This document shows positions 7,739 through 45,042 of a DNA stretch of 45,042 nucleotides, piece by piece. How positions within the stretch are numbered: position 1 is the stretch's first letter; the number at the start of each line of letters is the position of its first letter. The position numbers and the translations under genes were made by a program. The stretch is from a virus (Duplodnaviria; Heunggongvirae; Uroviricota; Caudoviricetes): the IMG/VR virus record IMGVR_UViG_2563366951_000002, positions 1-45,042 of that record; one strand, 5' to 3'. The notes beneath the pieces were generated by a model. The model was not told where the DNA came from. It worked only from the letters and a program-made list of their open reading frames with translations, and did no database searches.

Positions 7739-7833
7739 AAAGAAGATTTCCAATAATCAGAACAAGTCGGCTCCTGTTTAGTTACGAGCGACATTGCTCC
7801 GTGTATTCACTCGTTGGAATGAATACACAGTGC

Positions 7834-11904: not shown

Positions 11905-14359
11905 TTTTTATGCGCCGCCCCATAGCATCGAGGCAGAGCAGGCGGTGATTGGTGGATTGCTTCTGGATGATGACAGCAGTGAGCGCGTCCAGAAAGTTCT
12001 GGCGATGCTGAAGCCTGATTCATTTTACTGCCGACCACACAAAATCCTTTTCGAAGAAATAACCAGAATGCACCGTGAGCAAAAGCCAGTAGATGGCCTG
12101 ACGCTTTTCGATGAACTGGAGCGTAAATCGTTAACGGCGTCTGTTGGCGGTTTTGCTTATATCACTGAGATCGCAAAGAACACGCCAAGCGCCGCAAACA
12201 TCGTTGCCTATGCAATGCAGGTTCGCGAAACCGCAATGGAACGCTACGCCATCAACCGCATGACTGAAGCGACGGAATTGCTCTATTCCCGCAACGGAAT
12301 GACTGCGACGCAGAAGTACGAAGCTATTCAGGCGATTTTCACGCAACTGACAGACCATGCAAAAACCGGATCGCGTCGCGGCCTTCGCTCATTTGGTGAG
12401 GTTATGGAAGACTGGGTTAGCGACCTTGAGAAACGATTTGACCCATCAGGCGAACAACGGGGAATGAGCACAGGGATCCCATCGCTGGACAGGATGCTGT
12501 CACCGAAAGGTCTGGTGAAAGGCTCTCTGTTTGTCATTGGCGCTCGCCCTAAGATGGGGAAAGCGCAACCGCTTAATTCACGCATTTTGCTTGCTGATGG
12601 TTCATGGACAACATTTCGTGACGTATGTGTTGGAGATTCCCTAGCATCAGTGGATGGACAACCATCATTCGTGTCTGGAGTTTTTCCTCAAGGGGAGCGA
12701 GATATTTACCGAGTTACGTTCTCTGACGGAAGAACCGTTGATTGCGCGGATGATCATTTGTGGGAGATTCATAGTAACCGTATTACCGGTGGCGTTGATG
12801 TTGTAGACACCTGCCGCCTACGGGACATGATGGAATGCGTTCGCTATCAAAGCCGCATTCATGTTCCTGGTATTAGCGGTGACTTCGGATTGCCTGTTGA
12901 TTTAGGGATTAGCCCATGGCTGTTAGGTGCGTTACTTGGCGATGGAAATCTTGCAGGTACGCCACGAATCAGCATGACGGAACCATACATCATTGAGCGA
13001 GTAAGATCTGAAGTGGGTGACGATATTGAAGTCAGGCATGTTTCTGGCTGCGATTACTCCCTATCTCACAAGTTTAGCCGCAAATTATCTCTTACGCGGG
13101 TTATGCAACGGCTTGGTATCTACGGCCGGATGTCAGAGATTAAAATTATCCCGGATATTATTTTTTCTGCTGATAAGCAAACTCGTATTGATGTTCTATG
13201 CGGATTACTTGAAACCGATGGTTGGGTTGAAGGAAATAATGCCCTGCGCTTTAGCTCGGCAAGCAAGTTCCTGTCAGATGGTGTAAAGCGGCTGGTGCAT
13301 TCTCTTGGTGGCGTGTGTCGTATGACAACCAAACAGGAGCCGAAATTCAGTTATAAGGGAGAAATGCGCAAAGGTATGGATGCCCATATTTGCGCAATCA
13401 GGTTGCCTGATGAGGTTCTATCACACATAAAATCTCCACGCCTGAAGCAAAAATTCACTGCAAAACGCATCAAAACAAGTGCGCCTGTTATCACGTCGGT
13501 TGAGTATATTGGACGTGAAGAGTGCATTTGCATCATGGTATCCCACGAGAGACATTTGTATGCAACTGACGGATACATTCTAACTCACAACACCACGCTA
13601 TACAGCCAGATGGCAATCAACTGCGCAGTGCATGAGAAAAAGCCCGCTCTGATGTTCAGCCTTGAAATGCCAGGTGACCAGATACTGGAAAAACTGGTGG
13701 GACAGAAGTCAGGTGTTAACCCGAATATTTTTTACCTTCCGGCGACAAATGACGCTGATGACAGCTATCAGGGTGATTACGATGGTGACTTCAACAGGGC
13801 GATCGAAACAGCCAATCGCTTGAGTGAAATCGACCTGCTTTACATCGACGACACGCCGGGATTATCTCTGGCTCAAATCGTCAGCGAAAGCCGTCGAATC
13901 AAGCGAGAAAAAGGATGTGTTGGCATGATTCTGGTCGATTACCTGACACTAATGACTGCTGAGAAGGCCGATCGCAACGACCTTGCTTACGGCATGATCA
14001 CCAAAGGATTGAAGAACCTTGCCAAAGAGCTTGATTGCGTTGTTGTGCTTCTGACACAGCTTAACCGCGCACTGGAAAGCCGAACCAATAAACGCCCATT
14101 ACCAAGTGACTCACGAGATACAGGGCAGATTGAACAGGATTGCGATTATTGGGTTGGGATCCATCGGGAAGGTGCTTTTGATGACAGCGTTCCTCCTGGT
14201 GAAACCGAACTAATCCTTCGTCTCAATCGTCATGGCAATACCGGCACGGTGTATTGCATTCAGGCAAATGGCGCTATTTATGACACAGACCAACAGTCTG
14301 CTGAAATGCGCCGACGTGAACGCGAGGAACCGCAGTCCAAGAAGAAAGGAGGATTCTGA
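11894..14359 (+). CDS. DnaB-family replicative helicase interrupted by an in-frame intein
   Basis: ATG at 11894 (track ORF starts at GTG 11879); N-terminal DnaB-like domain; Walker A GARPKMGK, then 343-aa insert, then TTLYSQMAIN...SLEMP...LVDYL...SDSRDTGQIEQDCD helicase motifs. Confidence 0.8.
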   Translation: MTDNFYAPPHSIEAEQAVIGGLLLDDDSSERVQKVLAMLKPDSFYCRPHKILFEEITRMHREQKPVDGLTLFDELERKSLTASVGGFAYITEIAKNTPSAANIVAYAMQVRETAMERYAINRMTEATELLYSRNGMTATQKYEAIQAIFTQLTDHAKTGSRRGLRSFGEVMEDWVSDLEKRFDPSGEQRGMSTGIPSLDRMLSPKGLVKGSLFVIGARPKMGKAQPLNSRILLADGSWTTFRDVCVGDSLASVDGQPSFVSGVFPQGERDIYRVTFSDGRTVDCADDHLWEIHSNRITGGVDVVDTCRLRDMMECVRYQSRIHVPGISGDFGLPVDLGISPWLLGALLGDGNLAGTPRISMTEPYIIERVRSEVGDDIEVRHVSGCDYSLSHKFSRKLSLTRVMQRLGIYGRMSEIKIIPDIIFSADKQTRIDVLCGLLETDGWVEGNNALRFSSASKFLSDGVKRLVHSLGGVCRMTTKQEPKFSYKGEMRKGMDAHICAIRLPDEVLSHIKSPRLKQKFTAKRIKTSAPVITSVEYIGREECICIMVSHERHLYATDGYILTHNTTLYSQMAINCAVHEKKPALMFSLEMPGDQILEKLVGQKSGVNPNIFYLPATNDADDSYQGDYDGDFNRAIETANRLSEIDLLYIDDTPGLSLAQIVSESRRIKREKGCVGMILVDYLTLMTAEKADRNDLAYGMITKGLKNLAKELDCVVVLLTQLNRALESRTNKRPLPSDSRDTGQIEQDCDYWVGIHREGAFDDSVPPGETELILRLNRHGNTGTVYCIQANGAIYDTDQQSAEMRRREREEPQSKKKGGF
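12563..13591 (+). mobile_element. Intein (343 aa) with LAGLIDADG homing-endonuclease domain, inserted in the helicase P-loop
   Basis: Insert begins AQPLNSRILLADG and ends YILTHN, followed by Thr; two LAGLIDADG motifs (LLGALLGDGNL, LCGLLETDGW); removing it restores GARPKMGK-TTLYSQ. Confidence 0.75.
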
Positions 14360-14387
14360 TGACCGTCTACATCACTGAGATAATAAC

Positions 14388-14419
14388 AGGCCTGCTGGTA
14401 ATCGCAGGCCTTTTTATTT
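14388..14419 (+). terminator. Intrinsic terminator after the helicase gene (tR2-like position)
   Basis: Stem AGGCCTGC/GCAGGCCT with 8-nt loop followed by TTTTTATTT. Confidence 0.65.
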
Positions 14420-14434
14420 GGGGGAGGGTAAATC

Positions 14435-14641
14435 GTGGCTGAGTTAATTTTCTCTGCATTGAGGATTCTCGGTGCTATGTGGATGGTGGCGACGTTCATT
14501 GTTGTTGCCAACAGTTTTGTCCTGTTGGTAGGCGAAGGTAAAGACCTGGTGGGTGTGCTTTTCGGTAGCATTTTCCTGTGGGTGATTATCGGTGTTATGC
14601 CTGTTGTCGTAGCAAAAGTGGCGTGGCGTTTTGTGAGTTGA
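14435..14641 (+). CDS. Small hydrophobic protein (68 aa), predicted membrane protein
   Basis: ORF from track, GTG start with GGGAGGG upstream; two predicted transmembrane segments. Confidence 0.4.
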   Translation: MAELIFSALRILGAMWMVATFIVVANSFVLLVGEGKDLVGVLFGSIFLWVIIGVMPVVVAKVAWRFVS

Positions 14642-14648
14642 GGTAACG

Positions 14649-15095
14649 ATGAAGCAAATATACATGCTTCGCAACGAAGCAATCAGAAACAACGCCATAG
14701 ACGCAATACTCTCACTTCCGATCGACGACAAGTCACCTCACGAAGTCCACGTTAGAGAACCCAAACGCAGCAAAGCGCAGAATGACCGTATGTGGCCGAT
14801 GCTGAACGATGTTTCGCGTCAGGTGCTATGGCATGGTCAACGGCTGGCGCCGGAAGACTGGAAAGACCTGTTCACTGCCCTGTGGCTTAAGACCAAAAAA
14901 ATGGAGCAAAGAAGTGCGCCTGGTATCGACGGTGGCGTTGTTATGCTTGGCGTGCGTACCAGCAAAATGCGAAAGGCCAGCATGACTGAGCTTATCGAAA
15001 TCATGTTCTGGTTCGGCTCAGAGCGCAACGTGCGGTGGAGTGATGACTCCCGGCGAGAGTATGAATGGTCACAACGAAAAGGGAAGGCTGCATGA
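14649..15095 (+). CDS. ninB: NinB recombination protein (148 aa)
   Basis: Translation ...WPMLNDVSRQVLWHGQRLAPEDWKDLFTA...MFWFGSERNVRWSD resembles lambda NinB as recalled. Confidence 0.75.
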   Translation: MKQIYMLRNEAIRNNAIDAILSLPIDDKSPHEVHVREPKRSKAQNDRMWPMLNDVSRQVLWHGQRLAPEDWKDLFTALWLKTKKMEQRSAPGIDGGVVMLGVRTSKMRKASMTELIEIMFWFGSERNVRWSDDSRREYEWSQRKGKAA

Positions 15096-15619
15096 CTATC
15101 AAATCAAATACGCCAGCACACGACAAGGACTGCTGGCAAACGCCGCTTTGGCTTTTTGATGCGCTGGATATTGAGTTTGGATTCTGGCTGGATTCGGCAG
15201 CGAGCGACAAAAATGCTCTGTGCGCTCACTGGCTAACTGAGGCCGACGACGCGCTCAATTCTGAGTGGGTAAGCCACGGTGCAATCTGGAATAACCCACC
15301 GTACAGCAATATCAGGCCGTGGGTGGAAAAAGCCGCTGAGCAGTGCATACAACAGCGACAGACGGTAGTTATGCTTGTACCAGAGGATATGTCAGTCGGA
15401 TGGTTCAGCAAGGCTCTGGAGAGCGTTGACGAAGTTCGCATCATCACTGATGGACGGATTAATTTTATCGAACCATCGACGGGGCTGGAGAAGAAGGGAA
15501 ACAGCAAAGGCTCAATGCTGCTGATTTGGCGACCGTTCATCAGTCCTCGACGGATGTTTACTACCGTATCCAAAGCGGCATTGATGGCGATCGGGCAGGG
15601 CGTCAGGAGGGCGGCATGA
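15092..15619 (+). CDS. Phage-type DNA N6-adenine methyltransferase (Dam family)
   Basis: ATG at 15092 overlapping ninB stop (ATGA); catalytic NPPY motif ([10 protein letters not shown]); track ORF starts at 15065. Confidence 0.7.
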
Positions 15620-15792
15620 GACGACAGCGACGAAGTATCACCGACATAATCTGCGAAAACTGCAAATACCTTCCAACGAAACGCTCCAGAAATAAACGCA
15701 AGCCAATCCCAAAAGAATCTGACGTAAAAACCTTCAACTACACGGCTCACCTGTGGGATATCAGGTGGCTAAGACATCGTGCGAGGAAATGA
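15616..15792 (+). CDS. ninE: NinE-like protein (58 aa)
   Basis: ATG at 15616 with AGGAGG upstream; [32 protein letters not shown]... resembles lambda NinE as recalled. Confidence 0.65.
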
Positions 15793-16196
15793 CAATGCTT
15801 TTAATTCAACCTGGATTTGGCCTTAGCATCAAAAAAGGGCACATGTTTGGCGAGAAAGAGTCTCAACGAAAAATGGTGTCTATCCAGTTGCCATTTATCA
15901 GTATTTTATGGCTAAACAGGGAGGCAACAAATTATTGGTATACATGCGCCAGAGCAGCATTTAACGACCCTGAGTGGTTTGTAGAAAACCACCACGCAGT
16001 TCGTCAGGCAAAGAGAAAGGCCAACATGACATACATGAAGGCGTATCGAAAAGCATGGAAAGAACACCGCGATCGATACCAGCAAGACATGGAAAAGCTT
16101 GAATCAGAAAACATGGAATTAAGACGAAAGCTTGGTGAAGCAAAACGAGACATTGATGCTTACAAGCGACTTTTTAATGGTGAAAGCCATGCTTAG
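15789..16196 (+). CDS. Hypothetical nin-region protein (135 aa)
   Basis: ATG at 15789 overlapping ninE stop; track ORF begins at 15753; C-terminal coiled-coil-like segment. Confidence 0.45.
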
Positions 16197-16365
16197 CCCA
16201 TCCCAATCCCTTCAATACCAGAAAGAAAGCGTCGAGCGAGCTTTAACGTGCGCTAATTGCGGTCAAAAGCTGCATGTGCTGGAAGTTCACGTGTGCTCCG
16301 ATTGCTGCGCAGAACTGATGAGCGATCCGAATAGCTCAATGTACGAGGAAGAAGACGATGAGTGA
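16189..16365 (+). CDS. ninF: NinF-like protein (58 aa)
   Basis: Internal ATG at 16189; [44 protein letters not shown]... resembles lambda NinF as recalled. Confidence 0.65.
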   Translation: MLSPSQSLQYQKESVERALTCANCGQKLHVLEVHVCSDCCAELMSDPNSSMYEEEDDE

Positions 16366-16867
16366 TGTTAAAGAAAAAGATATCCCCGGCTTTGAGGGTA
16401 TATATAAAGTAACTGAAAATGGAGACATCATTTCATGCCGTAAATCAAAAAAATTATCTCATGGCATTAAACCAGGAGGATATGCATTTGTCGGTCTGTA
16501 TCCAGGTGGCGGGAAAAGACCATCATATAAAATGGTTCACAGAATTGTTGCAGAAGTATTTATTGATAACCCAGATGGCAAACCGGAAGTTAATCACAAG
16601 GATGGAAATAAACTTAATAATAAAGTTGAAAATCTTGAGTGGGTAACGCGAACAGAAAATGCGAAACATGGATTTGATTCCGGATTGCTTGTTCATGGGT
16701 TTAATCATCACTTCTGCAAACTAACGCCAGAACAAGTGAAATCAATATATAAATCAAAAGGCAAATACAGAGATATAGCCAAAGAATTTGGTGTTTGTGC
16801 GCAGACAGTGTGCAACATAAAAAACAAATCAGCGTACCGACGTTTTTTGGAGGGGATTGATGTTTAG
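16358..16867 (+). CDS. Free-standing HNH-family endonuclease (169 aa)
   Basis: ORF from track; HNH-like core (EVNHKDGNKLNNKVENLEWVTRTENAKHG) with N-terminal GIYKVTENGDI segment; region is visibly AT-rich relative to flanks. Confidence 0.7.
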   Translation: MSDVKEKDIPGFEGIYKVTENGDIISCRKSKKLSHGIKPGGYAFVGLYPGGGKRPSYKMVHRIVAEVFIDNPDGKPEVNHKDGNKLNNKVENLEWVTRTENAKHGFDSGLLVHGFNHHFCKLTPEQVKSIYKSKGKYRDIAKEFGVCAQTVCNIKNKSAYRRFLEGIDV

Positions 16868-17135
16868 AAGCAAAAAATGGCTTCAGACAGTCAGGGATAT
16901 TGAATTTTGCGTTCTTTGCGGAAGATACGGAGTTCAGGCCGCTCACAGAAATGAAGGGAAGGGGGTTGGGATTAAAGTAGATGATTGCCTTACTGCTGCG
17001 CTATGTGTTGATTGTCATTCAAGAATTGATAATGGGAGAGATATGAGCAGGGAAGAGCGAAGGGCTGAAATGGATCGGGCCATTGTGCTTACCCTTAAAA
17101 AATTGGTTAACAATGGGAGGGTGTTTGTCCAATGA
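16860..17135 (+). CDS. Small Cys/His-rich nin-region protein (DUF1364/YbcO-like?)
   Basis: ATG at 16860 (track ORF starts at TTG 16857); CxxC ... C..C.H pattern (CVLCGRY, CVDCHSR). Confidence 0.5.
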   Translation: MFRSKKWLQTVRDIEFCVLCGRYGVQAAHRNEGKGVGIKVDDCLTAALCVDCHSRIDNGRDMSREERRAEMDRAIVLTLKKLVNNGRVFVQ

Positions 17136-17494
17136 ACGAATATCAGTTTGTGCTTCCGTACCCGCCGTCGGTGAACACCTACTGGCGAAGAAGGGAAAGC
17201 CAATACTACATCAGCGATAAAGGCCAGAAATACCGAAAAGACGTTCAGCAAATCATTCGCCAACTCAAGTTAGACATTTTCACCAAATCACGACTCCGCA
17301 TCAAAGTCATCGCAGACGTTCCAGATTCCCGCCGCCGCGACCTCGACAACATCCTGAAAGGTTTACTCGACTCCCTTATCCACGCCGGATTTGCGGAAGA
17401 CGACGAGCAATTCGATGACATTCGCGTAATTCGTGGTGTGAAAGTACCAGGCGGACGGCTTGGAATAAAAATCACCGAACTGGAGAACGTATGA
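17132..17494 (+). CDS. rusA: RusA Holliday-junction resolvase (120 aa)
   Basis: MNEYQFVLPYPPSVNTYWRRR...DSRRRDLDNILKGLLDSLIHAGF resembles E. coli RusA (...[25 protein letters not shown]). Confidence 0.8.
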   Translation: MNEYQFVLPYPPSVNTYWRRRESQYYISDKGQKYRKDVQQIIRQLKLDIFTKSRLRIKVIADVPDSRRRDLDNILKGLLDSLIHAGFAEDDEQFDDIRVIRGVKVPGGRLGIKITELENV

Positions 17495-17679
17495 ACGCCA
17501 CAATTCAAACGATACCAGAGCTTCTTATCCAGACACGAGGCAATCAGATCGAAGTGGCAAGGATGCTTTCCTGCGCAAGAGGAACAGTGCTCAAGTACAA
17601 CCGAGACAGTAAAGGCGAGCGTCACGTAATAGTTAACGGCGTCCTGATGGTCAAACAGGGAAAAAGGGGAAGGCCATGA
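17491..17679 (+). CDS. ninH: NinH-like protein (62 aa)
   Basis: ...GNQIEVARMLSCARGTVLKYNRD... resembles lambda NinH HTH region as recalled. Confidence 0.6.
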   Translation: MNATIQTIPELLIQTRGNQIEVARMLSCARGTVLKYNRDSKGERHVIVNGVLMVKQGKRGRP

Positions 17680-18299
17680 GACTCGAAAGCGTAGCTAAAT
17701 TTCATTCGCCAAAAAGCCCGATGATGAGCGACTCACCACGGGCCACGGCTTCTGACTCTCTTTCCGGTACTGATGTGATGGCTGCTATGGGGATGGCACA
17801 ATCACAGGCCGGATTCGGGATGGCTGCATTTTGCGGTAAGCACGAACTCAGCCAGAACGACAAACAAAAGGCTATCAACTATCTGATGAAATTTGCACAC
17901 AAGGTATCGGGGAAATACCGTGGCGTGGCAAAGCTTGAAGGAAATACTAAGGCAAAGGTACTGCAAGTGCTCGCAACATTCGCTTATGCGGATTATTGCC
18001 GTAGTGCCGCGACGCCGGGGGCAAGATGCAGAGATTGCCACGGTACAGGCCGTGCGGTTGATATTGCCAAAACAGAGCTGTGGGGGAGAGTTGTCGAGAA
18101 AGAGTGCGGAAGATGCAAAGGCGTCGGCTATTCAAGGATGCCAGCAAGCGCAGCATATCGCGCTGTGACGATGCTAATCCCAAACCTTACCCAACCCACC
18201 TGGTCACGCACTGTTAAGCCGCTGTATGACGCTCTGGTGGTGCAATGCCACAAAGAAGAGTCAATCGCAGACAACATTTTGAATGCGGTCACACGTTAG
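17676..18299 (+). CDS. Q: Late-gene antitermination protein Q, lambda type (207 aa)
   Basis: MRLESVAKFHSPKSPMMSDSPRATASDS...; recognised as lambda Q; followed by a lambda-like pR' promoter. Confidence 0.9.
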   Translation: MRLESVAKFHSPKSPMMSDSPRATASDSLSGTDVMAAMGMAQSQAGFGMAAFCGKHELSQNDKQKAINYLMKFAHKVSGKYRGVAKLEGNTKAKVLQVLATFAYADYCRSAATPGARCRDCHGTGRAVDIAKTELWGRVVEKECGRCKGVGYSRMPASAAYRAVTMLIPNLTQPTWSRTVKPLYDALVVQCHKEESIADNILNAVTR

Positions 18300-18341
18300 C
18301 AGCATGATTGCCACGGATGGCAACATATTAACGGCATGATA

Positions 18342-18370
18342 TTGACTTATTGAATAAAATTGGGTAAATT
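18342..18370 (+). promoter_or_regulatory. Late promoter pR' (with qut region)
   Basis: TTGACTTATTGAATAAAATTGGGTAAATT: -35 TTGACT, 17-nt spacer, -10 TAAATT, matching lambda pR' as recalled. Confidence 0.75.
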
Positions 18371-18405
18371 TGACTCAACGATGGATAAATGCACTCGTTA
18401 AATAA

Positions 18406-18437
18406 AGCCCTGAGTTAATAGCTCGGGGCTTTTTTGT
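18406..18437 (+). terminator. tR'-like intrinsic terminator (end of a short 6S-like late leader RNA)
   Basis: GC-rich stem (18407-18414 pairs with 18422-18429) followed by TTTTTTG; downstream tatctgcacaacag matches the lambda tR' flank. Confidence 0.65.
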
Positions 18438-18690
18438 ATCTGCACAACAGATAATTGCATTGGGGTGACCGGTTAATCCCGTTACGCTAACCGAAACAGG
18501 CGCAGTGCAATTATCGTTGTGGTGAATGCGCAGGCTGATGCGCTAACTTATCAGCTAGATGGTGAGGTAAAGGCTCACCATGGCGACGACGGGTAGTTCA
18601 TTTACATGCCGGAAAACACAGCACCGGTCACCACACACCAAATACCTACCAGGACCATAAGAGCAAAAGCTCAACGCACTACCCTCTATT

Positions 18691-18716
18691 GCCCACCGCG
18701 CCGTGGGCTTTTTTAT
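18691..18716 (+). terminator. Second intrinsic terminator upstream of the holin gene
   Basis: Stem GCCCAC/GTGGGC with 6-nt loop followed by TTTTTTAT. Confidence 0.6.
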
Positions 18717-18822
18717 TGCAGGCCGCAGATATCATTTTCAGATGCCATGTAGCAATCAGAGTCTGACGGCCTTTCCCCTACAAACACACACAGCACCATC
18801 CGGAAAATCGGAGGTGAGGCCT

Positions 18823-19146
18823 ATGAAAATGCCATACAAACAAGATTTCATCGCTGCGCTACTTGCCGCCAAGGAGCAGGGTATTGGTGCAATGCTGGCT
18901 TTTATCATGGCGTATCTGCGTGGTCGCTATAACGGCGGCGCGGTAACAAAAACGCTAATTGATGCGCTGATGTGCGCGATGATTGCCTGGTTCGTTCGTG
19001 ACCTTCTGGACTTTATCGGCCTGAGCAGCAACCTCGCCTACATAGCCAGCGTCTTTATTGGATACATCGGCACCGATTCGATCGGCAATCTTATTAAAAA
19101 ACTTGCAGCAAAAAAGGCGGGAGTTGACGATGCAAACCAGTCCTGA
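18823..19146 (+). CDS. S: Holin, lambda S type (107 aa, dual start Met1/Met3)
   Basis: ATG at 18823 then AAA ATG (MKM...); [39 protein letters not shown]... resembles lambda S; track ORF starts earlier at GTG 18703. Confidence 0.85.
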
Positions 19147-19579
19147 CGGAATTGCTCTGATAAAAAAATTTGAAGGTTGTCGGCTGACTGCTTACCCCGA
19201 CCCCGGAACGGGAGATGCGCCGTGGACCATCGGCTATGGCTGGACCCATCCGGTTGACGGAAAGCCAGTAAAGCGCGGTATGACTATCGACCAGCAAACC
19301 GCTGACAGGCTTCTGAAAACAGGGCTTGTTGGTTATGAGAATGACGTGCTGAAAGTTGTCAGGGTGAAGCTGACACAAGGCCAGTTCGACGCACTGGTGT
19401 CGTTCGCTTACAACGTTGGGTCGCGTGCTCTTTCCACATCTACACTGCTGAAAAAGCTGAATGCTGGCGATATAAAAGGCGCGGCAGATGAATTTCTGCG
19501 CTGGAATAAATCAGGCGGAAAGGTGATGCCGGGGCTCACGAATCGCCGCAAGGCAGAGCGAGCTCTGTTCCTGTCATGA
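19130..19579 (+). CDS. Endolysin, phage lysozyme (T4/P22 type), not the lambda R transglycosylase
   Basis: ATG at 19130 overlapping the holin 3' end; ...[24 protein letters not shown]... lysozyme catalytic region; C-terminus [11 protein letters not shown]. Confidence 0.75.
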
Positions 19580-20043
19580 TTAGCGCACTGGTTAAGCGTT
19601 ACTGGCTGCAGTTGCTGGTGCTGGCGTTAATCGGCGCACTGGCTTTCTTCGTGAACCACTACCGCGACAACGCCATCACTTACAGAGACCAGCGCGATAA
19701 GGCCACTGAGAAACTCCTCCTGGCGACCGCCACCATTAAAGACATGCAGACCCGCCAGCGTGATGTCGCTGCACTGGATGCCAAATACACCGGAGAACTG
19801 GCTGATGCGAAAGAAACCATTGAGCGTCTGCATAGCGATGTCATTGCTGGCCGTAAGCGGCTGCAAGTCGCCGCCACCTGTGCAAAGTCAACGACCGGAG
19901 CCAGCAGCATGGGCGATGGAGAAAGCCCAAGACTTACAGCAGATGCTGAACTCAATTATTACCGTCTACGAAGTGGAATCGACAAGATAACCGCGCAGGT
20001 TAACTACCTGCAGGAATACATCAGGACGCAATGCCTGAAATAA
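19576..20043 (+). CDS. Rz: Rz i-spanin (155 aa)
   Basis: N-terminal transmembrane segment, ...[11 protein letters not shown]...[16 protein letters not shown]... resembles lambda Rz. Confidence 0.85.
19805..19990 (+). CDS. Rz1: Rz1 o-spanin lipoprotein (61 aa), embedded in Rz in the +1 frame
   Basis: ATG at 19805; [20 protein letters not shown] lipoprotein signal with lipobox, then proline-rich [13 protein letters not shown]. Confidence 0.8.
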
Positions 20044-20074
20044 TTTTTTTGCAAATCACAAAGTCAATTTAATG

Positions 20075-20101
20075 AGCCTCGCGAAAAGCGGGGCTTTTTT
20101 A
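20075..20101 (+). terminator. Intrinsic terminator after the lysis cassette
   Basis: Stem AGCCTCGC/GCGGGGCT (one G-U pair) with 5-nt loop followed by TTTTTA. Confidence 0.55.
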
Positions 20102-20248
20102 TGTCCGCAGTAAACCGCGCATTCTCGTGCGCATATCAACCAAGAGCCTTTCGGGGTAGAGCTTGAGATAGGGCAGTGGTAACGCTGACCGCTCTTGGGC
20201 TGCCCGTATCTACGAGAACAGGCTCAACCACCAAAAGGTATCAGCGAA

Positions 20249-20746
20249 ATGAAATCATTAACCCTCTTCAATCAACCAATCCGTGTCGGAGAAGACGGCA
20301 TGATCTGCCTCACCGATATGTGGAAAGCCAGTGGCAAAAGTGATGCTGAATCGCCTTACCATTATCTGCGAAACAAGCAGACCAAAGAGTTCTTAGCCGA
20401 GCTGGAGAAAAACCACGAATCTGTGGTTTTCACTGCCCGCGGCGTACACGGCGGAACCTATGGCGGGAAGTTTGTTGCATACGATTATGCGGCATGGCTA
20501 AACCCCGGGTTCAAGTACGCAGCCTATAAGGTCCTCGATGACTACTTCACCGGAGAGCTTCAGCATCGCAACAGCTTAAGTGCGCAGCTCAACATGAAGT
20601 GTCATGAGTTTGACCAGAAGAAGGACATGGCGAGCTTCTGCGGGCAAGGCCTCGCTGCATGGCGCTATACAAAGCCTGTGCTGGTCGCTGAGATTAACAC
20701 CCTTGCTAACCAGCTGCAGATTACGCTCCCAGGGCTTCAAGGATGA
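20249..20746 (+). CDS. KilA-N domain protein (166 aa)
   Basis: ATG at 20249 (track ORF starts 20195); N-terminal region MKSLTLFNQPIRVGEDGMICLTDMWKASGK... has KilA-N/APSES-like character. Confidence 0.6.
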   Translation: MKSLTLFNQPIRVGEDGMICLTDMWKASGKSDAESPYHYLRNKQTKEFLAELEKNHESVVFTARGVHGGTYGGKFVAYDYAAWLNPGFKYAAYKVLDDYFTGELQHRNSLSAQLNMKCHEFDQKKDMASFCGQGLAAWRYTKPVLVAEINTLANQLQITLPGLQG

Positions 20747-21006
20747 ATAATCGCGTCATCGAATGCGCCTCCAGAGCGGGGCGCGACTTCTCAGAGTTCA
20801 TGAAAGGCGAGAAGGGCATGATGGAAGCATTGGCCTCGGTGGATGAGTTTGGCGAGCAGCTGCGCCTAAACGGCTGTGTCAATCATCACTTTGTTAGCTA
20901 CATGATGCGGAACTCGATCATGCAGGCATTCATGGACATGGCAAAAGCCGAGAGGAAAGAAGAGCGCCGGCGTAAGCGAGCGGAAGCAAAAGCAAAAGTG
21001 AAGTAG
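20743..21006 (+). CDS. Hypothetical protein (87 aa) with basic Lys/Arg/Glu-rich C-terminus
   Basis: ORF from track; start overlaps the KilA-N gene stop. Confidence 0.5.
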   Translation: MNNRVIECASRAGRDFSEFMKGEKGMMEALASVDEFGEQLRLNGCVNHHFVSYMMRNSIMQAFMDMAKAERKEERRRKRAEAKAKVK

Positions 21007-21300
21007 CCATTACAAAGCCCATTTACGGGTGGGCTTGATAATGAAACCGGAATTTATTCTGGGCAACCAGTTACGGCAGTACCACGAAGCAACCCAAGCC
21101 AGTAAGTGGGGAAATAACACTGGCAGCCACTGAAAGATGAACCTCCTGCCTTATGGCAAAAAAGATTCTTTGTGGTGGCAGGCTGATGGAAAGACATCGG
21201 TTATTGCAGAGGCCATTCAATGAGTGGTCTCGACAATGGCTTATACCCTGCACGGGATAACTTAACTGATATCCCTTTTAACGGATAAACGGAGCCAATA

Positions 21301-21855
21301 ATGGCAAAGCTCACAGACAAACAAGAGCTGTTTGCCCGTGAGTACCTGAAAGATTTAAACGCCACTCAGGCAGCTATCAGGGCGGGTTACAGCGAGAAAA
21401 CTGCTCGCGCCACTGGTAGCGAGAACCTGTCAAAACCTGACATAGCAGATCGCATTGCTGAGCTAAAGGCTGAACGCAATGAAGAGGTAGGTATAGACGC
21501 TGCCTATGTATTGCGACGGCTGACTGAAATCGATCAGATGGACGTGCTTGACATTCTGCTTGCCAATGGCGAACTGAAGCCGATTAAAGACTGGCCTAAG
21601 GTGTGGCGTACAACGCTATCAGGAATGGATGTCGTCGAGATGGCATCAGCAGATAGTGCTGCTCTCCTGAAGAAAATCAAATGGCCTGATAAGGTTAAAA
21701 ACCTTGAGTTGCTCGGGCGTCATGTTTCTGTTCAGGCGTTTAAAGACAATGTCAAAAATGAAGTGACTGGTGCTGACGGAGGACCAGTCAGAACAGAAAT
21801 TACCAACTTAACGCCGGAGCAGGCTGCAGAAGCGTATAAAAAAATGATGGGCTAA
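21301..21855 (+). CDS. Terminase small subunit (184 aa)
   Basis: [49 protein letters not shown]... typical terminase small-subunit N-terminal DNA-binding region; immediately upstream of the large subunit. Confidence 0.75.
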
Positions 21856-21857
21856 GT

Positions 21858-23480
21858 ATGCCGTTACCATTTCCCTTCGATTTTAAACATCCTGATTACC
21901 AGATGGTTTTTGAATGGCGGATGGAGCGCTTACAGCGCATTCGCCAGAACCCTGAAATGCTGCCAGCGCTAAAGCAGTTTTACCGCACCAACCCGGCACA
22001 GTTCATCATCGACTGGGGGATGACTACTGACCCGCGTAACATCGATTATGGCCTGCCGGTCACCATCCCTTTTCTGCTGTTCCCGAAACAGGAAGAGTGG
22101 ATTCACTGGATCATGGAGCGGCGCGAACGACTGGAGAACGGCATCACCGAAAAGAGCCGCGAAATGGGGCTCAGTTGGACCGCGATCGGGCTGGCCTGCT
22201 CGCTTTGTCTCTTCAACAAAGAAATGGTTATCGGTTTCGGCTCCCGTAAAGAGGAATACGTCGACAGCACCGGTGACCCGAAGGCGCTGTTCTGGAAGGC
22301 GCGAAAGTTCGTGGAAACACTGCCCATCGAGTTTCGTGGTTCGTGGGACGAGAAGAAGCATGCGCCGTATATGCGCGTTGAGTTTCCCGATACTGGCGCG
22401 GTCATCAAAGGCGAGGCTGGCGACAATATCGGTCGTGGTGACCGTACCACGCTCTACCTGGTGGATGAAGCTGCATTCCTCCAGCGTCCTCTGTTGATTG
22501 ATGCGGCGCTGTCGCAAACCACCCGTTGCCGTATTGACCTGAGCTCGGTTAATGGCATGGCGAACCCGTTCGCGCAGAAGCGTCACGGCGGGAAGATACC
22601 GGTATTCACATTCCACTGGCGGGATGATCCTCGCAAGGATGAAGAGTGGTATCGCAGGGAGTGCGAGAAAATCGACAATCCGGTGGTGGTGGCGCAGGAA
22701 CTTGACCTGAACTACAGCGCATCTGCGGAAGGCGTCCTGATCCCGTCCGACTGGGTACAGGCTGTCGTCGACGCGCATATCAAACTTGGTATTCAGCCAA
22801 CGGGCAAGCGACTGGGCGCGATGGACGTCGCCGACGAAGGCCGGGACAAAAATGCCTTTTCGACCCGTCACGGCTTCCTTCTGGAGAACGTGCGTGAATG
22901 GTCCGGCGTGGGCAGCGACATTTACCAGTCCGTTGAGAAGGTCTTCGGCTTTTGCGAACAGGACAACCTCGAAGAATTTCGCTTCGACGAGGACGGCCTG
23001 GGCGCTGGCGTTCGCGGCGATGCACGCGCCATCAACGAACTGCGTAACGCTGCGCGCCGACCGTCAATACTCGCCACACCGTTTCGTGGTAGCGGCGCGG
23101 TATTTGATCCGGACGATGAAGCGGTGCGCGGGGACAACGGACAGGCCGCCCGCCTGAATAAGGACTTCTTCGCTAACGCCAAGGCCCAGAGCTGGTGGCA
23201 TTTACGCAAGCTTTTCCAGAACACCTATCGCGCCGTGGTTGAGGGCATGGCCTACAACCCGGACGAAATCATCTCAATCAGCAGCGCCATGGCGAGCAAA
23301 GACAAACTCATCATCGAGCTGTCGCAGCCGACCTACTCCATTAATGGCGTGGGGAAAATCGTTGTTGATAAACAGCCTGATGGCACCAAGTCGCCGAACC
23401 TCGCCGACTCGGTGATGATCAGCTACGCGCCAATGAATTCAGCCCTGAACATCTGGGAGCTGCTAGGGAGACAGGCCTGA
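21858..23480 (+). CDS. Terminase large subunit (540 aa)
   Basis: Size and position between small subunit and portal; ATPase-like N-terminal half and nuclease-like C-terminal half inferred; high-GC coding with long spurious antisense ORFs. Confidence 0.75.
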
Positions 23481-44565: not shown

Positions 44566-45042
44566 TTAACTAAACATCGCAGTAATCGAGGCGCTTGCCA
44601 GAGAGTGGAAATGAACGTTAAACCCGACCATCGCGCCGCTGGCACCTTCATCGACATCAATACGTTCTATATCCAGCGCGTGAACGGTAAAAATGTAGCG
44701 ATGAGTTTCGCCTTTCGGCGGTGCTGCGCCATCGTACCCGGTTTTACCAAAGTCGGTACGCGTCTGCAAAACGCCGTCTGGCATTGCTACCAGACCAGAG
44801 CCAAACCCTTGCGGTAATACGCGGGTATCAGCGGGTAAGTTAACAACTACCCAGTGCCACCAGCCGGAGCCGGTTGGCGCATCCGGGTCGTAGCAGGTGA
44901 CAACAAAACTTTTCGTTCCCGCAGGAACATCATCCCACGCCAGATGCGGTGAAATATTATCGCCATCGTAACCCATGCCGTTAAAGACATGACGATGCGG
45001 CAATTTATCGCCATCGCGCAGATCGTTACTGATGAGTTTCAT
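44566..45042 (-). CDS. ybhB: YbhB, PEBP/kinase-inhibitor-family protein (158 aa); host gene on the bio side of attB-lambda
   Basis: Complete ORF from track, ATG at 45040-45042; recognised by recall as E. coli ybhB. Confidence 0.85.
   Translation of the reverse strand: MKLISNDLRDGDKLPHRHVFNGMGYDGDNISPHLAWDDVPAGTKSFVVTCYDPDAPTGSGWWHWVVVNLPADTRVLPQGFGSGLVAMPDGVLQTRTDFGKTGYDGAAPPKGETHRYIFTVHALDIERIDVDEGASGAMVGFNVHFHSLASASITAMFS

Follow-up and report, generated by a model that had tools for sequence, protein, structure and literature searches.

Organization of the region between Q and the holin gene

The window analyzed here is the whole 45,042-nt stretch of a Caudoviricetes genome (IMG/VR record IMGVR_UViG_2563366951_000002), and the locus of interest lies between a lambda-type Q antiterminator gene and a lambda-family holin gene (Table 1). 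The Q gene, recognized through its profile match, stands immediately 5' of the late promoter pR', which is the single sigma-70-like + strand site of the promoter scan and whose -35 element starts 43 nt past the Q stop codon. Positions 18300–18385 are 100% identical to lambda, including the element TATTGAATAAAATTGGGTAAA and AACGAT. The transcription start was placed at A18377 by analogy with lambda, and AACGAT is presumably the -10-like sequence that induces the sigma-dependent pause in that phage. A putative Q-binding element within pR', a probable -10-like element at +1 to +6, and a predicted intrinsic terminator (tR') soon after the promoter are all features of the lambda-type late leader. 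In the records of phages mEp213 and mEp043, the TATTGAATAAAATTGGGTAAA element is labeled "Qut site".

Table 1. Features of the window from the Q gene to the holin gene.
Feature	Position	Strand	Description
Q antiterminator, lambda type, 207 aa	17676..18299	+	From the ORF list; Pfam Antiterm PF03589, E=8.8e-58
Late promoter pR'	18342..18370	+	TTGACT 18342-47, 17-nt spacer, TAAATT 18365-70; promoter scan
Q-binding element (qut), putative	18348-68	+	TATTGAATAAAATTGGGTAAA; between -35 and -10; identical in lambda
Short pR' leader RNA, about 54-60 nt	18377..18436	+	From sequence; begins AACGAT 18377-82
Terminator tR'	18404..18435	+	13-pair stem 18404-32, T-run 18430-35; -19.1 kcal/mol
P1 long hairpin, 79 nt	18443..18521	+	6 bp, bulged A, 13 bp; apex 18463-18502; MFE -32.8
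tRNA-shaped scaffold	18518..18635	+	Closing (acceptor-like) helix 18518-24 / 18629-35; linker AAT 18525-27
D-like hairpin	18528..18543	+	GCGCA-GGCUGA-UGCGC; loop GCUG pairs with the T-like loop
Variable "cargo" insert	18544..18607	+	18547-18596 mimics 16S rRNA helix 11
T-like hairpin	18608..18628	+	GCCGG-AAAACACAGCA-CCGGU; directly joined to the closing-helix 3' strand; loop CAGC complementary to GCUG
Trailer	18636..18690	+	Begins CACCAAAU
Second intrinsic terminator, predicted	18691..18714	+	GCCCAC-CGCGCC-GTGGGC + T6; 6-bp GC stem, 6-nt loop; -11.2 kcal/mol
Holin 5' UTR and lambda-family holin	18715..19146	+	Holin 18823-19146; Pfam PF05106, E=8.5e-30
Holin Shine-Dalgarno and dual start	18810-19 (SD); 18823 (ATG)	+	Met-Lys-Met

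The leader is predicted to fold into a 5' hairpin and the terminator (-23.3 kcal/mol). In agreement with a first, sequence-only reading of this DNA, pR' and tR' are both recognizable and bound a leader shorter than lambda 6S RNA (54–60 nt with the start assigned by analogy, vs ~194 nt). The promoter, the Q-binding element and the first ~24 transcribed nt are shared with lambda, after which the match is lost and resumes at TTTTTTnTATCTGCACAACAG; the roughly 135-nt body and the long terminator hairpin of 6S are missing, as is the target of the 6S probe, and a different, simpler hairpin is found instead. The alignment with lambda that had been proposed for defining a deletion bears out the loss of the 6S body; an unrelated shorter hairpin takes its place. 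The leader is neither a simple deletion nor a peculiarity of this genome: leader and terminator are 97–99% identical in HK97, mEp213, mEp043, HK544, HK542, HK140, mEpX1 and others; judged by these matches, it is an ordinary HK97/mEp-type variant. In other prophages tR' is a mosaic breakpoint at which a different Q is joined (position 18407). The lambda 6S leader is produced in lysogens too and is Hfq-bound, and StxS of the Stx phages is a short pR' leader that acts as an sRNA. The window leader has no sequence relation to StxS, but by analogy with these constitutive short terminated RNAs, which are Hfq-bound or regulatory, a constitutive short terminated RNA may be expected here.

Downstream of tR' lie about 250 bp without a credible ORF, as had been noted; the ORF list for 18437–18690 holds only frames of 25–48 aa, none of them conserved, and the middle of the interval is unrelated sequence in related copies. 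The interval is closed by a predicted second terminator, a GC-rich hairpin followed by a U-run, as the earlier reading had it, although this does not lie "just before" the holin Shine-Dalgarno, which is about 95 nt further downstream. The number of terminator-like sites in 17000–20000 (5, vs 3.3 ± 1.9 expected from shuffles) is not in excess, and what distinguishes tR' and the second terminator is their strength, position and conservation, not their number. The same terminator scan on lambda detected neither tR' nor the second hairpin, and the promoter scan gave no promoter-like site between the two terminators of the window. The trailer and the second terminator form a block that moves together; other E. 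coli prophages have it 3' of a bona fide tRNA-Asn, with a trailer that is 100% identical. A candidate hairpin in the holin UTR (18720–29 / 18762–72) was noted by eye only.

A long hairpin at the position of lambda LPR2

The first structure after tR' is the long hairpin P1, in whose stem 12 of 17 pairs are maintained through double changes among 19 homologues, lambda included. LPR2 is a ~63-nt, Hfq-bound sRNA of the lytic cycle of lambda (Silverman et al., bioRxiv 10.1101/2024.10.31.621285). Its northern probe, P844, maps to lambda 44816–44850, which is within the lambda P1 (44787–44862), and removal of the basal 6 bp from the lambda P1 leaves exactly 63 nt, in line with the ~63 nt of the LPR2 band. 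Lambda and the window thus have in common a first structure directly 3' of tR' that starts with CACAACAG and forms a long hairpin with a conserved, covarying stem, for which a product of 66 nt is predicted here, vs the ~63 nt observed in lambda. The apex of the window hairpin, on the other hand, is unrelated in sequence to that of lambda, and both the P844 target and the complementarity to PreS are missing from it. The duplex between P1 and PreS is significant in lambda (z=-3.75), whereas the window P1 against its own PreS gives z=-0.41. The window does encode PreS. P1 corresponds to the LPR2 region of lambda in structure only.

A tRNA-shaped scaffold with a variable insert

Abutting P1 is a scaffold in which a 7-bp acceptor-like helix is predicted to be contiguous with a 5-bp T-like hairpin, accompanied by a D-like hairpin, with D- and T-like loops that are complementary by Watson-Crick pairing. 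From the loci collected here, a working family definition was drawn up: a closing helix of at least 7 bp, AAU, GCGCA-GGCUGA-UGCGC, an insert, and GCCGG-loop with CAGC-CCGGY joined to the closing 3' strand. All of these elements are present at 18518–18635, and the isolated sequence folds unaided into the predicted four-way shape (-41.1 kcal/mol). The 20-mer that holds the D-like hairpin (18524–43) occurs once in the window, with 0 occurrences expected by chance, and its conserved core is identical among phage and bacterial contigs. The window copy deviates from others in its T-like loop (11 nt vs the usual 9), in a U·G closing pair of the T-like stem, and in mismatches at the two outermost closing pairs. 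The closing helix shares 4 nt (18518–21) with P1, so that the two cannot both form fully together.

Covariation supports these helices. Of the 9 closing-helix pairs 7 covary, with none of 500 shuffles reaching the score, as do 3 of 5 pairs of the T-like stem; in an alignment of 58 sequences, 95% of cells are paired, covariation is 0.277, vs 0.096 in shuffles (none of 500 as high), and slid controls collapse. There are 17 distinct closing-helix 5' strands in the viral data and 44 in genomes, and a 19-nt core is the same in many genera of Proteobacteria, among which the closing helix has been altered by compensatory substitutions dozens of times. The pairing between the two loops is likewise compensated in 19 of the 34 scaffolds with a variant D loop (ACUG/CAGU in 15, GCCG/CGGC in 4). 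Within the scaffold helices, G·U pairs outnumber A·C mismatches by 74 to 23 (p=2e-7), and this excess therefore points to selection on the + strand RNA. The further stem-loops that had been remarked on downstream of tR' are thus present, but covariation suggests that they are not incidental: they are helices conserved in a family of RNAs that is widespread. The earlier idea of a small RNA encoded in the interval also gains from this, P1 being the structural counterpart of the LPR2 region and the remainder a covarying structured RNA. As judged from these patterns, the interval holds two structured RNA modules and is not spacer.

The insert of the scaffold is highly variable: among 231 complete copies (177 distinct), inserts of 7–244 nt fall into 94 similarity clusters, and no conserved ORF was found in the insert. 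That of the window resembles positions 243–282 of E. coli 16S rRNA, with 33 of 40 nt identical and the changes paired. The Rfam SSU rRNA model matches 18547–93 with 32.7 bits (E=8e-8), which is below the whole-gene gathering score of 50 and marks a fragment-sized mimic of helix 11; the match was recovered with a 285-nt query but missed with a 1.6-kb query. In a sister copy, the bacterial SSU model matches 16S positions 237–283. The helix-11 type of insert was found in 8 distinct scaffolds, and no other insert matched the E. coli rrn operon. Between the leader, P1 apex, cargo, T-like loop or trailer and the rest of the window, the longest complementarity was 9–12 nt, which is chance level.

Relationship to tRNA genes and to known RNA families

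The scaffold shares with tRNA a terminal helix of 7 bp that runs on into a 5-bp T-like stem, the D-like hairpin, and the pairing of D and T loops, here joined by 4–5 Watson-Crick pairs, but it has a 7–244-nt insert in place of the anticodon arm and is without a canonical T-loop or D-loop. A CCA at the canonical offset is missing from the window, where an ACCA begins two nt past the closing helix; in other classes, the offset of CCA or CCC varies. There is no cloverleaf with an anticodon arm, and neither the tRNA finder nor the tRNA model recognized the scaffold: ARAGORN predicted 0 tRNA or tmRNA genes in the window and only genuine tRNA-Asn at six loci, and the Rfam tRNA model (RF00005) gave no match in the window at E<=10. 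Genuine tRNA genes nevertheless hold the corresponding slot in relatives and in P22-like phages. E. coli EC2001 has a tRNA-Asn in the slot of the scaffold, followed by an identical trailer. In E2348/69, a copy whose acceptor helix is the same but whose D and T arms are canonical bears the annotation of a pseudogenic tRNA-Gly. Of 126 viral contexts, 15 had tRNA genes between -700 and +900 nt relative to the scaffold; in bacterial genomes, tRNA genes lay no more than 1 kb away at six loci, always in the orientation of the scaffold.

No family in Rfam 15 matches the scaffold; searches of the window, the three first relatives and 18 further loci returned only terminator look-alikes, real tRNAs and the helix-11 fragment. 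A full-text literature search for the core sequences as strings retrieved no paper, and no such motif is in Weinberg 2017.

Several known RNAs do offer partial parallels. A 7-bp acceptor stem has been cited as a major determinant for RNase P. In YrlA of M. smegmatis, a tRNA-like ncRNA that is cut by M1 RNA, the tRNA-like module is an RNase P substrate and has been proposed to stabilize the RNA. The window scaffold has no Rfam match to YrlA or Y RNA, and the survey of neighbors gave repressor and lysis genes, with no TROVE protein and no Ro/Rsr context. The "species 1/2" RNAs of the T4 tRNA cluster are further tRNA-like ncRNAs. A tmRNA is not indicated either, given the negative ARAGORN result and the absence of a conserved ORF in the insert. 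The c4 RNAs of P1 and P7 and the CI RNA of P4 are cut from longer transcripts by RNase P and combine a conserved frame with variable specificity loops. Many scaffold copies likewise lie in immunity regions beside the repressor, but there is no Rfam C4 match, and complementarity within the window reaches a maximum of 10–12 nt, again chance level. GOLLD and ROOL are likewise structured RNAs that are often found in prophages and beside tRNA genes, and both multimerize. The scaffold differs from them in having no sequence or model similarity (no Rfam match), in its Proteobacteria hosts, and in its modular build with hypervariable inserts. Its complementary loops could nonetheless pair between molecules, as an alternative to pairing within one. 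Of other candidates, svsR is a different RNA located at the cI 3' end, and integron attC sites, hammerhead or other ribozyme cores and MITE-like ends were dropped by eye, as their defining motifs are missing.

Distribution and genomic context

The scaffold was found in >240 viral contigs and in the genomes of >85 bacterial species, and full multi-module versions are 450–650 nt in length. The largest context class is a position downstream of a CI-type repressor (101 of 365 loci), which suggests that the role of the scaffold is not specific to late-gene control. A lysis-gene context is common to about 30–36 loci, and other copies are in tRNA clusters or, in virulent phages, next to baseplate genes; virulent Jedunavirus phages are among the carriers. 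Several Jedunavirus assemblies begin or end within the element, and in the annotation of CUS-3 "boundary sequences" flank the region between Q and the holin gene. Mosaic breakpoints coincide with the module edges at 18407, about 18500 and 18638. A terminator-like site lies within 200 nt of 64 of 172 scaffolds elsewhere (37%), vs 33 (19%) in the antisense control. The second terminator was ruled out as an integral part of the module, with just 37% of copies having one.

Proposed function and alternative explanations

The locus is probably the late-operon 5' leader of an HK97/mEp-like lambdoid prophage, in which an ordinary Q-controlled layer is combined with a structured RNA cassette carried in the late transcript. 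Constitutive transcription from pR' would yield an RNA of ~55–60 nt ending at tR', and only Q-modified polymerase would continue into the cassette, which would consist of P1, the abutting tRNA-shaped scaffold with its cargo in the place of the anticodon arm, and the trailer with the second terminator. After antitermination by Q, host tRNA-processing enzymes may recognize the tRNA-like fold, with RNase P cutting where the 5' strand of that acceptor-like helix starts, around 18515–18518. Such a cut would free the P1 hairpin (~66 nt here; for lambda 63 nt, in line with the LPR2 band) together with a nuclease-resistant tRNA-like RNA presenting the cargo, and would separate these small RNAs from the lysis mRNA. 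The second terminator might stop unmodified polymerase that leaks through tR'. The cargo could act as a host-factor decoy, a sponge or an antisense RNA.

A rather unlikely alternative is that the interval is essentially spacer, and that two terminators in tandem, as the earlier reading proposed, tighten late-gene control, with the lysis and late genes more firmly repressed before Q appears. Each hairpin is a good candidate for a terminator, no promoter-like site stands between them, and tandem terminators downstream of lambda pR' were reportedly described by Luk and Szybalski in 1983. Terminators are read through by Q-modified polymerase. This explanation, however, accounts neither for the covarying helices, the loop-loop covariation and the strand-specific G·U bias, nor for scaffolds that lie 3' of repressor genes and in the virulent Jedunavirus; terminator-like sites follow only the minority of scaffolds elsewhere given above, and in relatives trailer and terminator come after a plain tRNA-Asn. 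Tandem terminators are not a sufficient account of the interval.

It is less probable still that the element acts at the DNA level, with incidental folds and with flanks that serve either as linkers for recombination ("boundary sequences") or as the termini of a small mobile cassette. The breakpoints at module edges, the identical flanks that enclose unrelated inserts, the CUS-3 annotation and the Jedunavirus assemblies that end inside the element would all fit this explanation, but compensatory changes in three helices and in the loop pairing, together with the G·U bias, indicate that a single-stranded molecule of the + strand is selected, and neither target-site duplications nor a transposase or integrase were seen at the surveyed loci. 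Recombination at conserved linkers, rather than RNA function, could partly explain why near-identical flanks surround unrelated inserts, and as an evolutionary mechanism, not as a function, the DNA-level explanation is compatible with the RNA reading.

A cis-acting leader, whose folds govern the translation, stability or timing of the holin/lysis mRNA with no trans-acting RNAs, would suit the position directly upstream of a dual-start holin and the loci with lysis genes, yet is very improbable given that CI-type repressors precede the scaffold in the largest context class, that other copies are in tRNA clusters or beside baseplate genes of virulent phages, and that between scaffold and Shine-Dalgarno there are a terminator and about 95 nt. 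Decayed tRNA genes, that is, a non-functional remnant of a phage tRNA cluster, are equally hard to credit: the use of the slot by tRNA genes in relatives and P22-like phages, the pseudogenic annotation of a relative and the rejection of the scaffold by tRNA finders are all in keeping with decay, but pseudogenes do not keep an identical 19-nt core across genera alongside dozens of compensatory helix changes.

Beyond the reading of the locus as a late leader with a structured RNA cassette, a wider and much more tentative proposal, which we regard as unlikely, is that the scaffold defines an unclassified, pan-proteobacterial family of phage "carrier" RNAs. A near-invariant tRNA-shaped frame would serve as a processing substrate and be nuclease-resistant, and would present a hypervariable, trans-acting cargo, its expression being coupled either to the repressor, in lysogens, or to the late genes. 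Ribosomal protein uS17 binds 16S helix 11, and the cargo of the window may be a helix-11 decoy that titrates a helix-11-binding factor, whether uS17 or an rRNA-directed defense or toxin nuclease; in conflicts of phages with hosts or with other phages, the remaining cargos may be sponges, antisense RNAs or decoys.

Implications

The short leader and the two terminators are by themselves routine lambdoid biology. The surrounding comparisons suggest that the heavily studied late leader of lambda bears a degenerate version of a modular RNA system. Temperate phages of Proteobacteria, and some virulent ones, commonly carry this system, which was not found in Rfam 15 or the searchable literature. LPR2 would gain structural and evolutionary context from this, along with the prediction that its 3' end is made by RNase P cleavage at the adjoining tRNA-like domain. 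The scaffold would also be a counterpart in nature to the "tRNA scaffold" engineered for stable RNA expression and, if the cargos are functional, the family may represent a large unexplored reservoir of phage trans-acting RNAs, including a mimic of an rRNA helix.

Late promoter, short leader and two terminators

The window is a lambdoid prophage in which positions 14000-22000 consist of long blocks 95-98% identical to phages Louie, Dewey, ECP1, mEp506 and mEpX2. The late promoter pR' is the sole sigma-70-like site found by the promoter scan within 17000-20000, and 18300-18385 matches lambda without difference, including the stretches that correspond to lambda's Q-binding element (18348-68) and to its promoter-proximal pause signal (AACGAT, 18377-82). 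Because the hairpin and T-run of tR' come so soon after pR', the terminated leader is 54-60 nt long, compared with ∼194 nt for lambda 6S RNA, which bears out the short spacing described in the sequence-only reading. The deletion proposed there is only part of what alignment with lambda revealed: the first ∼24 transcribed nucleotides are kept, the 6S body of roughly 135 nt and its long terminator hairpin are absent with a shorter, different hairpin substituted, and the match resumes at TTTTTTnTATCTGCACAACAG. Promoter, leader and terminator stem (18300-18434) are 97-99% identical in HK97, mEp213, mEp043, HK544, HK542, HK140, mEp235, mEpX1 and others, and several phages sharing this stretch carry a 'Qut site' annotation. 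As judged from these alignments, the short leader is one standard variant paired with lambda-type Q and not a private deletion.

pR' is constitutive, whilst passage of tR' requires the antiterminator Q. Since the lambda leader RNA is Hfq-associated and present both in lysogens and in lytic growth (Silverman et al., bioRxiv 10.1101/2024.10.31.621285), and since Stx phages make StxS, a 74-nt pR' leader that is a regulatory sRNA, a constitutive RNA of ∼55-60 nt would be expected here by analogy.

Downstream, 18437-18690 holds only ORFs of 25-48 aa, in agreement with the earlier description of an ORF-free interval. The second terminator-like hairpin is also present but, given the position of the holin Shine-Dalgarno sequence (SD), lies ∼95 nt upstream of it and not just before it as had been stated; apart from this distance the earlier observation is confirmed. 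The dual start of the holin resembles lambda S107/S105, and its 5' UTR (18720-18772) contains a possible hairpin, AGGCCGCAGA ... UCUGACGGCCU, found in related loci too. Further upstream, a 169-aa ORF with HNH-endonuclease-like motifs lies within the nin region (16358-16867, + strand), where Louie and Dewey have annotated HNH endonucleases; this ORF is probably an inserted homing endonuclease.

Coordinates of features between the Q and holin genes (window positions)
Feature	Position	Strand	Basis
Lambda-type Q gene	end 18299	+	
pR', TTGACT-17-TAAATT	18342-18370	+	promoter scan
tR' hairpin, 13 pairs and T-run	18404-18435	+	folding, -19.1 kcal/mol
P1 hairpin	18443-18521		folding, -32.8 kcal/mol
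Scaffold	18518-18635		
Scaffold insert, contains CUUAUCAGCUAGAUGGUGAGGUAAAGGCUCACCAUGGCGACGACGGGUAG	18544-18607	+	Rfam SSU rRNA match
Trailer	18636-18690		
Second terminator-like hairpin and T6	18691-18714	+	folding, -11.2 kcal/mol
Holin SD	18810-19	+	
Holin start, Met-Lys-Met	18823 (codons 18823-18831)	+	

A selected RNA scaffold

The lead to the interval's content was that short, very similar pieces of it occur in non-coding regions of unrelated phages: between Q and S in CUS-3, beside the repressor in mEp460, and beside baseplate genes in the virulent Jedunavirus ZCEC13. The family was collected by three exact-pattern scans of IMG/VR and species genomes, and was found in >240 IMG/VR contigs (among the matches listed) and 120 species genomes, with complete copies in 89. 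The consensus order is a closing helix, AAU, a D-like GCGCA-GGCUGA-UGCGC hairpin, an insert and a T-like GCCGG-AGAUCAGCA-CCGGC hairpin, whose 3' strand passes directly into that of the closing helix. The window copy alone folds to exactly this four-way shape (-41.1 kcal/mol).

Across 58 distinct flank pairs (among the matches listed), 95.1% of cells were paired, falling to 27-48% when partners were shifted by 1-3 columns as a control, with double changes at 7 of the 9 pairs in the closing helix and 3 of the 5 in the T-like stem. The covariation score was 0.277, compared with 0.096 in shuffles, none of 500 being as high. At least 17 distinct closing 5' strands were counted among the viral copies and 44 among the genome copies, nearly every one of them paired, and the inner 7 pairs, the length of an acceptor stem, were best kept. 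Amongst non-Watson-Crick cells, G·U exceeded A·C (74 vs 23, p=2e-7), which identifies the strand given here, in the window that of the late transcript, as the one under selection. The loops of the two hairpins can pair with each other (GCUG/CAGC). Because the first scans held the D-like loop fixed, variants were sought in separate scans, and a matching T-like change was found in 19 of 34 distinct scaffolds with a variant D-like loop (ACUG with CAGU in 15, GCCG with CGGC in 4); the consensus D-loop was accompanied by CAGC 171 times and by CAGU or UAGC (G·U) 20 times, among the matches listed. Together these results are good evidence that the scaffold is a selected RNA structure. The sequence of its two hairpins is invariant beside freely covarying helices.

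It is unlikely that the interval is a spacer between two terminators, as this leaves the covariation and the other genomic contexts unexplained. Less probable still is that the conserved flanks are recombination linkers, which would account for mosaicism and provide a possible route of cargo exchange, but for neither the G·U excess on one strand nor the compensatory changes in the paired loops. The mosaicism itself is evident: the complete 18300-18830 was found in one of 5,426 E. coli genomes (ES3), four others match from 18407, where a different antiterminator gene is joined, one from about 18500, and several, including EC2001, only from 18638 onward. In EC2001-type prophages a genuine tRNA-Asn replaces 18437-18637, the junction being the exact tRNA 3' end (...CCA|AATACCTACC...), followed by identical trailer, terminator and holin. 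By sequence, these breakpoints coincide with module edges; tRNA genes in the corresponding slot of P22-like and Stx phages are well known.

Resemblance to tRNA and the cargo

The scaffold has the architecture of a tRNA: its 7-bp terminal helix runs on into a 5-bp stem as in the acceptor/T minihelix, the second hairpin, 3 nt past the 5' strand, corresponds to the D arm, and the loop-loop pairing to the elbow, with the insert standing in place of the anticodon arm. No tRNA detector recognises the scaffold, a fixed CCA is also absent, and Rfam 15 gave no family match to it in the window or 21 other loci. The E. coli E2348/69 homologue is a 113-nt annotated pseudogenic tRNA-Gly with the same terminal helix (GUUGUGG/CCACAAC) but, unlike the window scaffold, canonical D and T arms; ARAGORN makes no call on it. 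It is part of a multi-module element of the scaffold family (L008 1320-1790). That the interval represents dead tRNA genes is very improbable, as this leaves a 19-nt core identical across bacterial orders unexplained. The short leader and two terminators are known biology, and the scaffold belongs to the tRNA-like phage RNAs, a kind already known. Its closest analogues are the tRNA-like domains of YrlA and tmRNA and the phage-borne GOLLD/ROOL RNAs, together with the RNase P-processed c4/CI immunity RNAs and T4 'species 1/2' RNAs. The core sequences were not found in the searchable literature, outside which a description is possible.

Inserts measure 7-244 nt (median 72; 177 distinct complete scaffolds), and the 173 of at least 20 nt form 94 similarity clusters, both among the matches listed. 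In a 285-nt search, CUUAUCAGCUAGAUGGUGAGGUAAAGGCUCACCAUGGCGACGACGGGUAG matched SSU rRNA models at helix-11 positions (32.7 bits, E=8e-8), and a sister copy matches bacterial SSU positions 237-283. The window insert is identical to E. coli 16S 243-282 at 33 of 40 positions, with stem differences paired (UA/UA to AU/AU), and by sequence appears to copy helix 11, either as a functional mimic or as a captured fragment. Its outer stem is presumably nearer the CCCAUC...GACGGG type of other phyla than the enterobacterial GGGAU...AUCCC. Helix-11-like cargo occurs in 8 distinct scaffolds (among the matches listed), and the other cargos showed no resemblance to an E. coli rrn operon.

The P1 hairpin and lambda LPR2

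P1, the first structure downstream of tR', comprises 6 bp, a bulged A and 13 bp (CACAAC-A-GAUAAUUGCAUUG ... CAGUGCAAUUAUC-GUUGUG). This hairpin is also found at the equivalent site in lambda, with compensatory differences (GGUAAGAGCA/UGCUCUUUCC, vs GAUAAUUGCA/UGCAAUUAUC in the window), and of the 17 pairs predicted, 12 are retained through two-sided changes among 19 aligned homologues. Lambda also keeps a 9-bp closing helix with compensatory change (GUUGUGCUG/CAGCACAAC), whereas the canonical D-like and T-like hairpins are lost. LPR2 is a ∼63-nt, Hfq-bound, lytic-cycle RNA ligated to PreS/LPR1 in RIL-seq (Silverman et al., bioRxiv 10.1101/2024.10.31.621285). Because its northern probe, the reverse complement of lambda 44816-44850, falls inside lambda P1 (44787-44862; L007 988-1063), window P1 is the structural counterpart of the LPR2 region. 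Minus its basal 6 bp, lambda P1 is exactly 63 nt, equal to the LPR2 band; the window equivalent is 66 nt (18450-18515).

The LPR2 probe target was not found in the window, and the P1 apex is no sequence homologue of lambda's. The PreS/LPR1 probe target has an exact 34/34 copy on the minus strand (about 7739-7772), followed by a terminator-like hairpin, and the prophage therefore encodes this sRNA of the early-left operon. Lambda P1 forms a strong duplex with PreS (-50.8 kcal/mol, z=-3.75 vs shuffles), which fits the sponge idea of the RIL-seq authors (Silverman et al.); window P1 is not complementary to PreS (z=-0.41 vs shuffles), this complementarity being present in lambda and lost in the window.

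P1-type hairpins lie upstream of the scaffold in many classes, and irrespective of sequence their 3' strand always overlaps the start of the closing helix. They may derive from tRNAs with acceptor stems extended by leader-trailer pairing. Many of their apices carry the canonical T-arm motif GGUUCGAnUCC (e.g., L009, L011, L153, L202, L226).

Genomic contexts and hosts

Among the matches listed, a CI-type repressor (HTH and Peptidase_S24) lies ∼0.5 kb upstream of the scaffold and co-oriented in 101 of 365 loci; holin, endolysin or Rz genes follow the scaffold in about 30-36, and lambda-type Q precedes it in 20. The commonest context is thus the immunity region and not the late leader (mEp460, L005 486-1720, and 100 further loci; among the matches listed), where the scaffold occupies the position of lambda rexAB. 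That the interval is a cis-regulator of the holin has scarcely any likelihood, being at odds with this repressor-linked majority. Because the immunity-region site is downstream of and co-oriented with the repressor, such scaffolds may be expressed in lysogens, as their arrangement suggests. Of 126 viral contexts, 15 have tRNA genes between -700 and +900 nt from the scaffold; 6 genome loci have a tRNA within 1 kb, in all 6 co-oriented with the scaffold.

ZCEC13, mEp460 and E2348/69 have multi-module elements of 450-650 nt in which the scaffold comes last. These long elements have an upstream module, GGCACAUG...GCAGCGGUCCGG ... GGGUAGCCGGAAUGUGC (L004 1180-1300, L005 1290-1400, L008 1340-1430), which was not found in the window and resembles a further, putative type of scaffold closed by a helix of its own. 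A sequence end falls inside the element in several independent assemblies of Klebsiella phages (Jedunavirus JD001, KB2, 1611E-K2-1 and 15-38_KLPPOU148), a hint that either the physical end of the genome or a break in assembly lies there.

Hosts include Enterobacterales, Pseudomonas, Xanthomonas, Burkholderiales, Rhizobiales and others. Among the species genomes (L250-L369), many proteobacterial orders have exact copies of the 19-mer GAATGCGCAGGCTGATGCG, as do a few MAGs assigned to Flavobacterium, Coriobacteriia, Dehalococcoidia and CPR; matches in MAGs of other phyla may be binning errors. Three of the species-genome matches (L278, L287, L342) resemble unrelated coding sequence.

Proposed processing

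Q-modified polymerase would read through the whole RNA cassette, and RNase P would cut the tRNA-like fold where the 5' strand of the closing helix begins (about 18515-18518), giving the 3' end of the predicted 66-nt P1 RNA. A 7-bp acceptor helix is one major determinant for RNase P, and one tRNA-like ncRNA is cleaved by M1 RNA and gains CCA. Scaffold and cargo would form a compact RNA resistant to nucleases, with trailer and terminator a possible third product. Since only polymerase without Q is stopped, the second terminator would act as a back-stop, and any transcript made independently of Q would end there. RNase P-type processing of the cassette is put forward tentatively, and the overall account, late-leader RNA modules with predicted processing of this type, we consider reasonably probable. 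We are confident that the RNA modules are genuine and under selection, and that they share homology with the LPR2 region of lambda and with a wide family.
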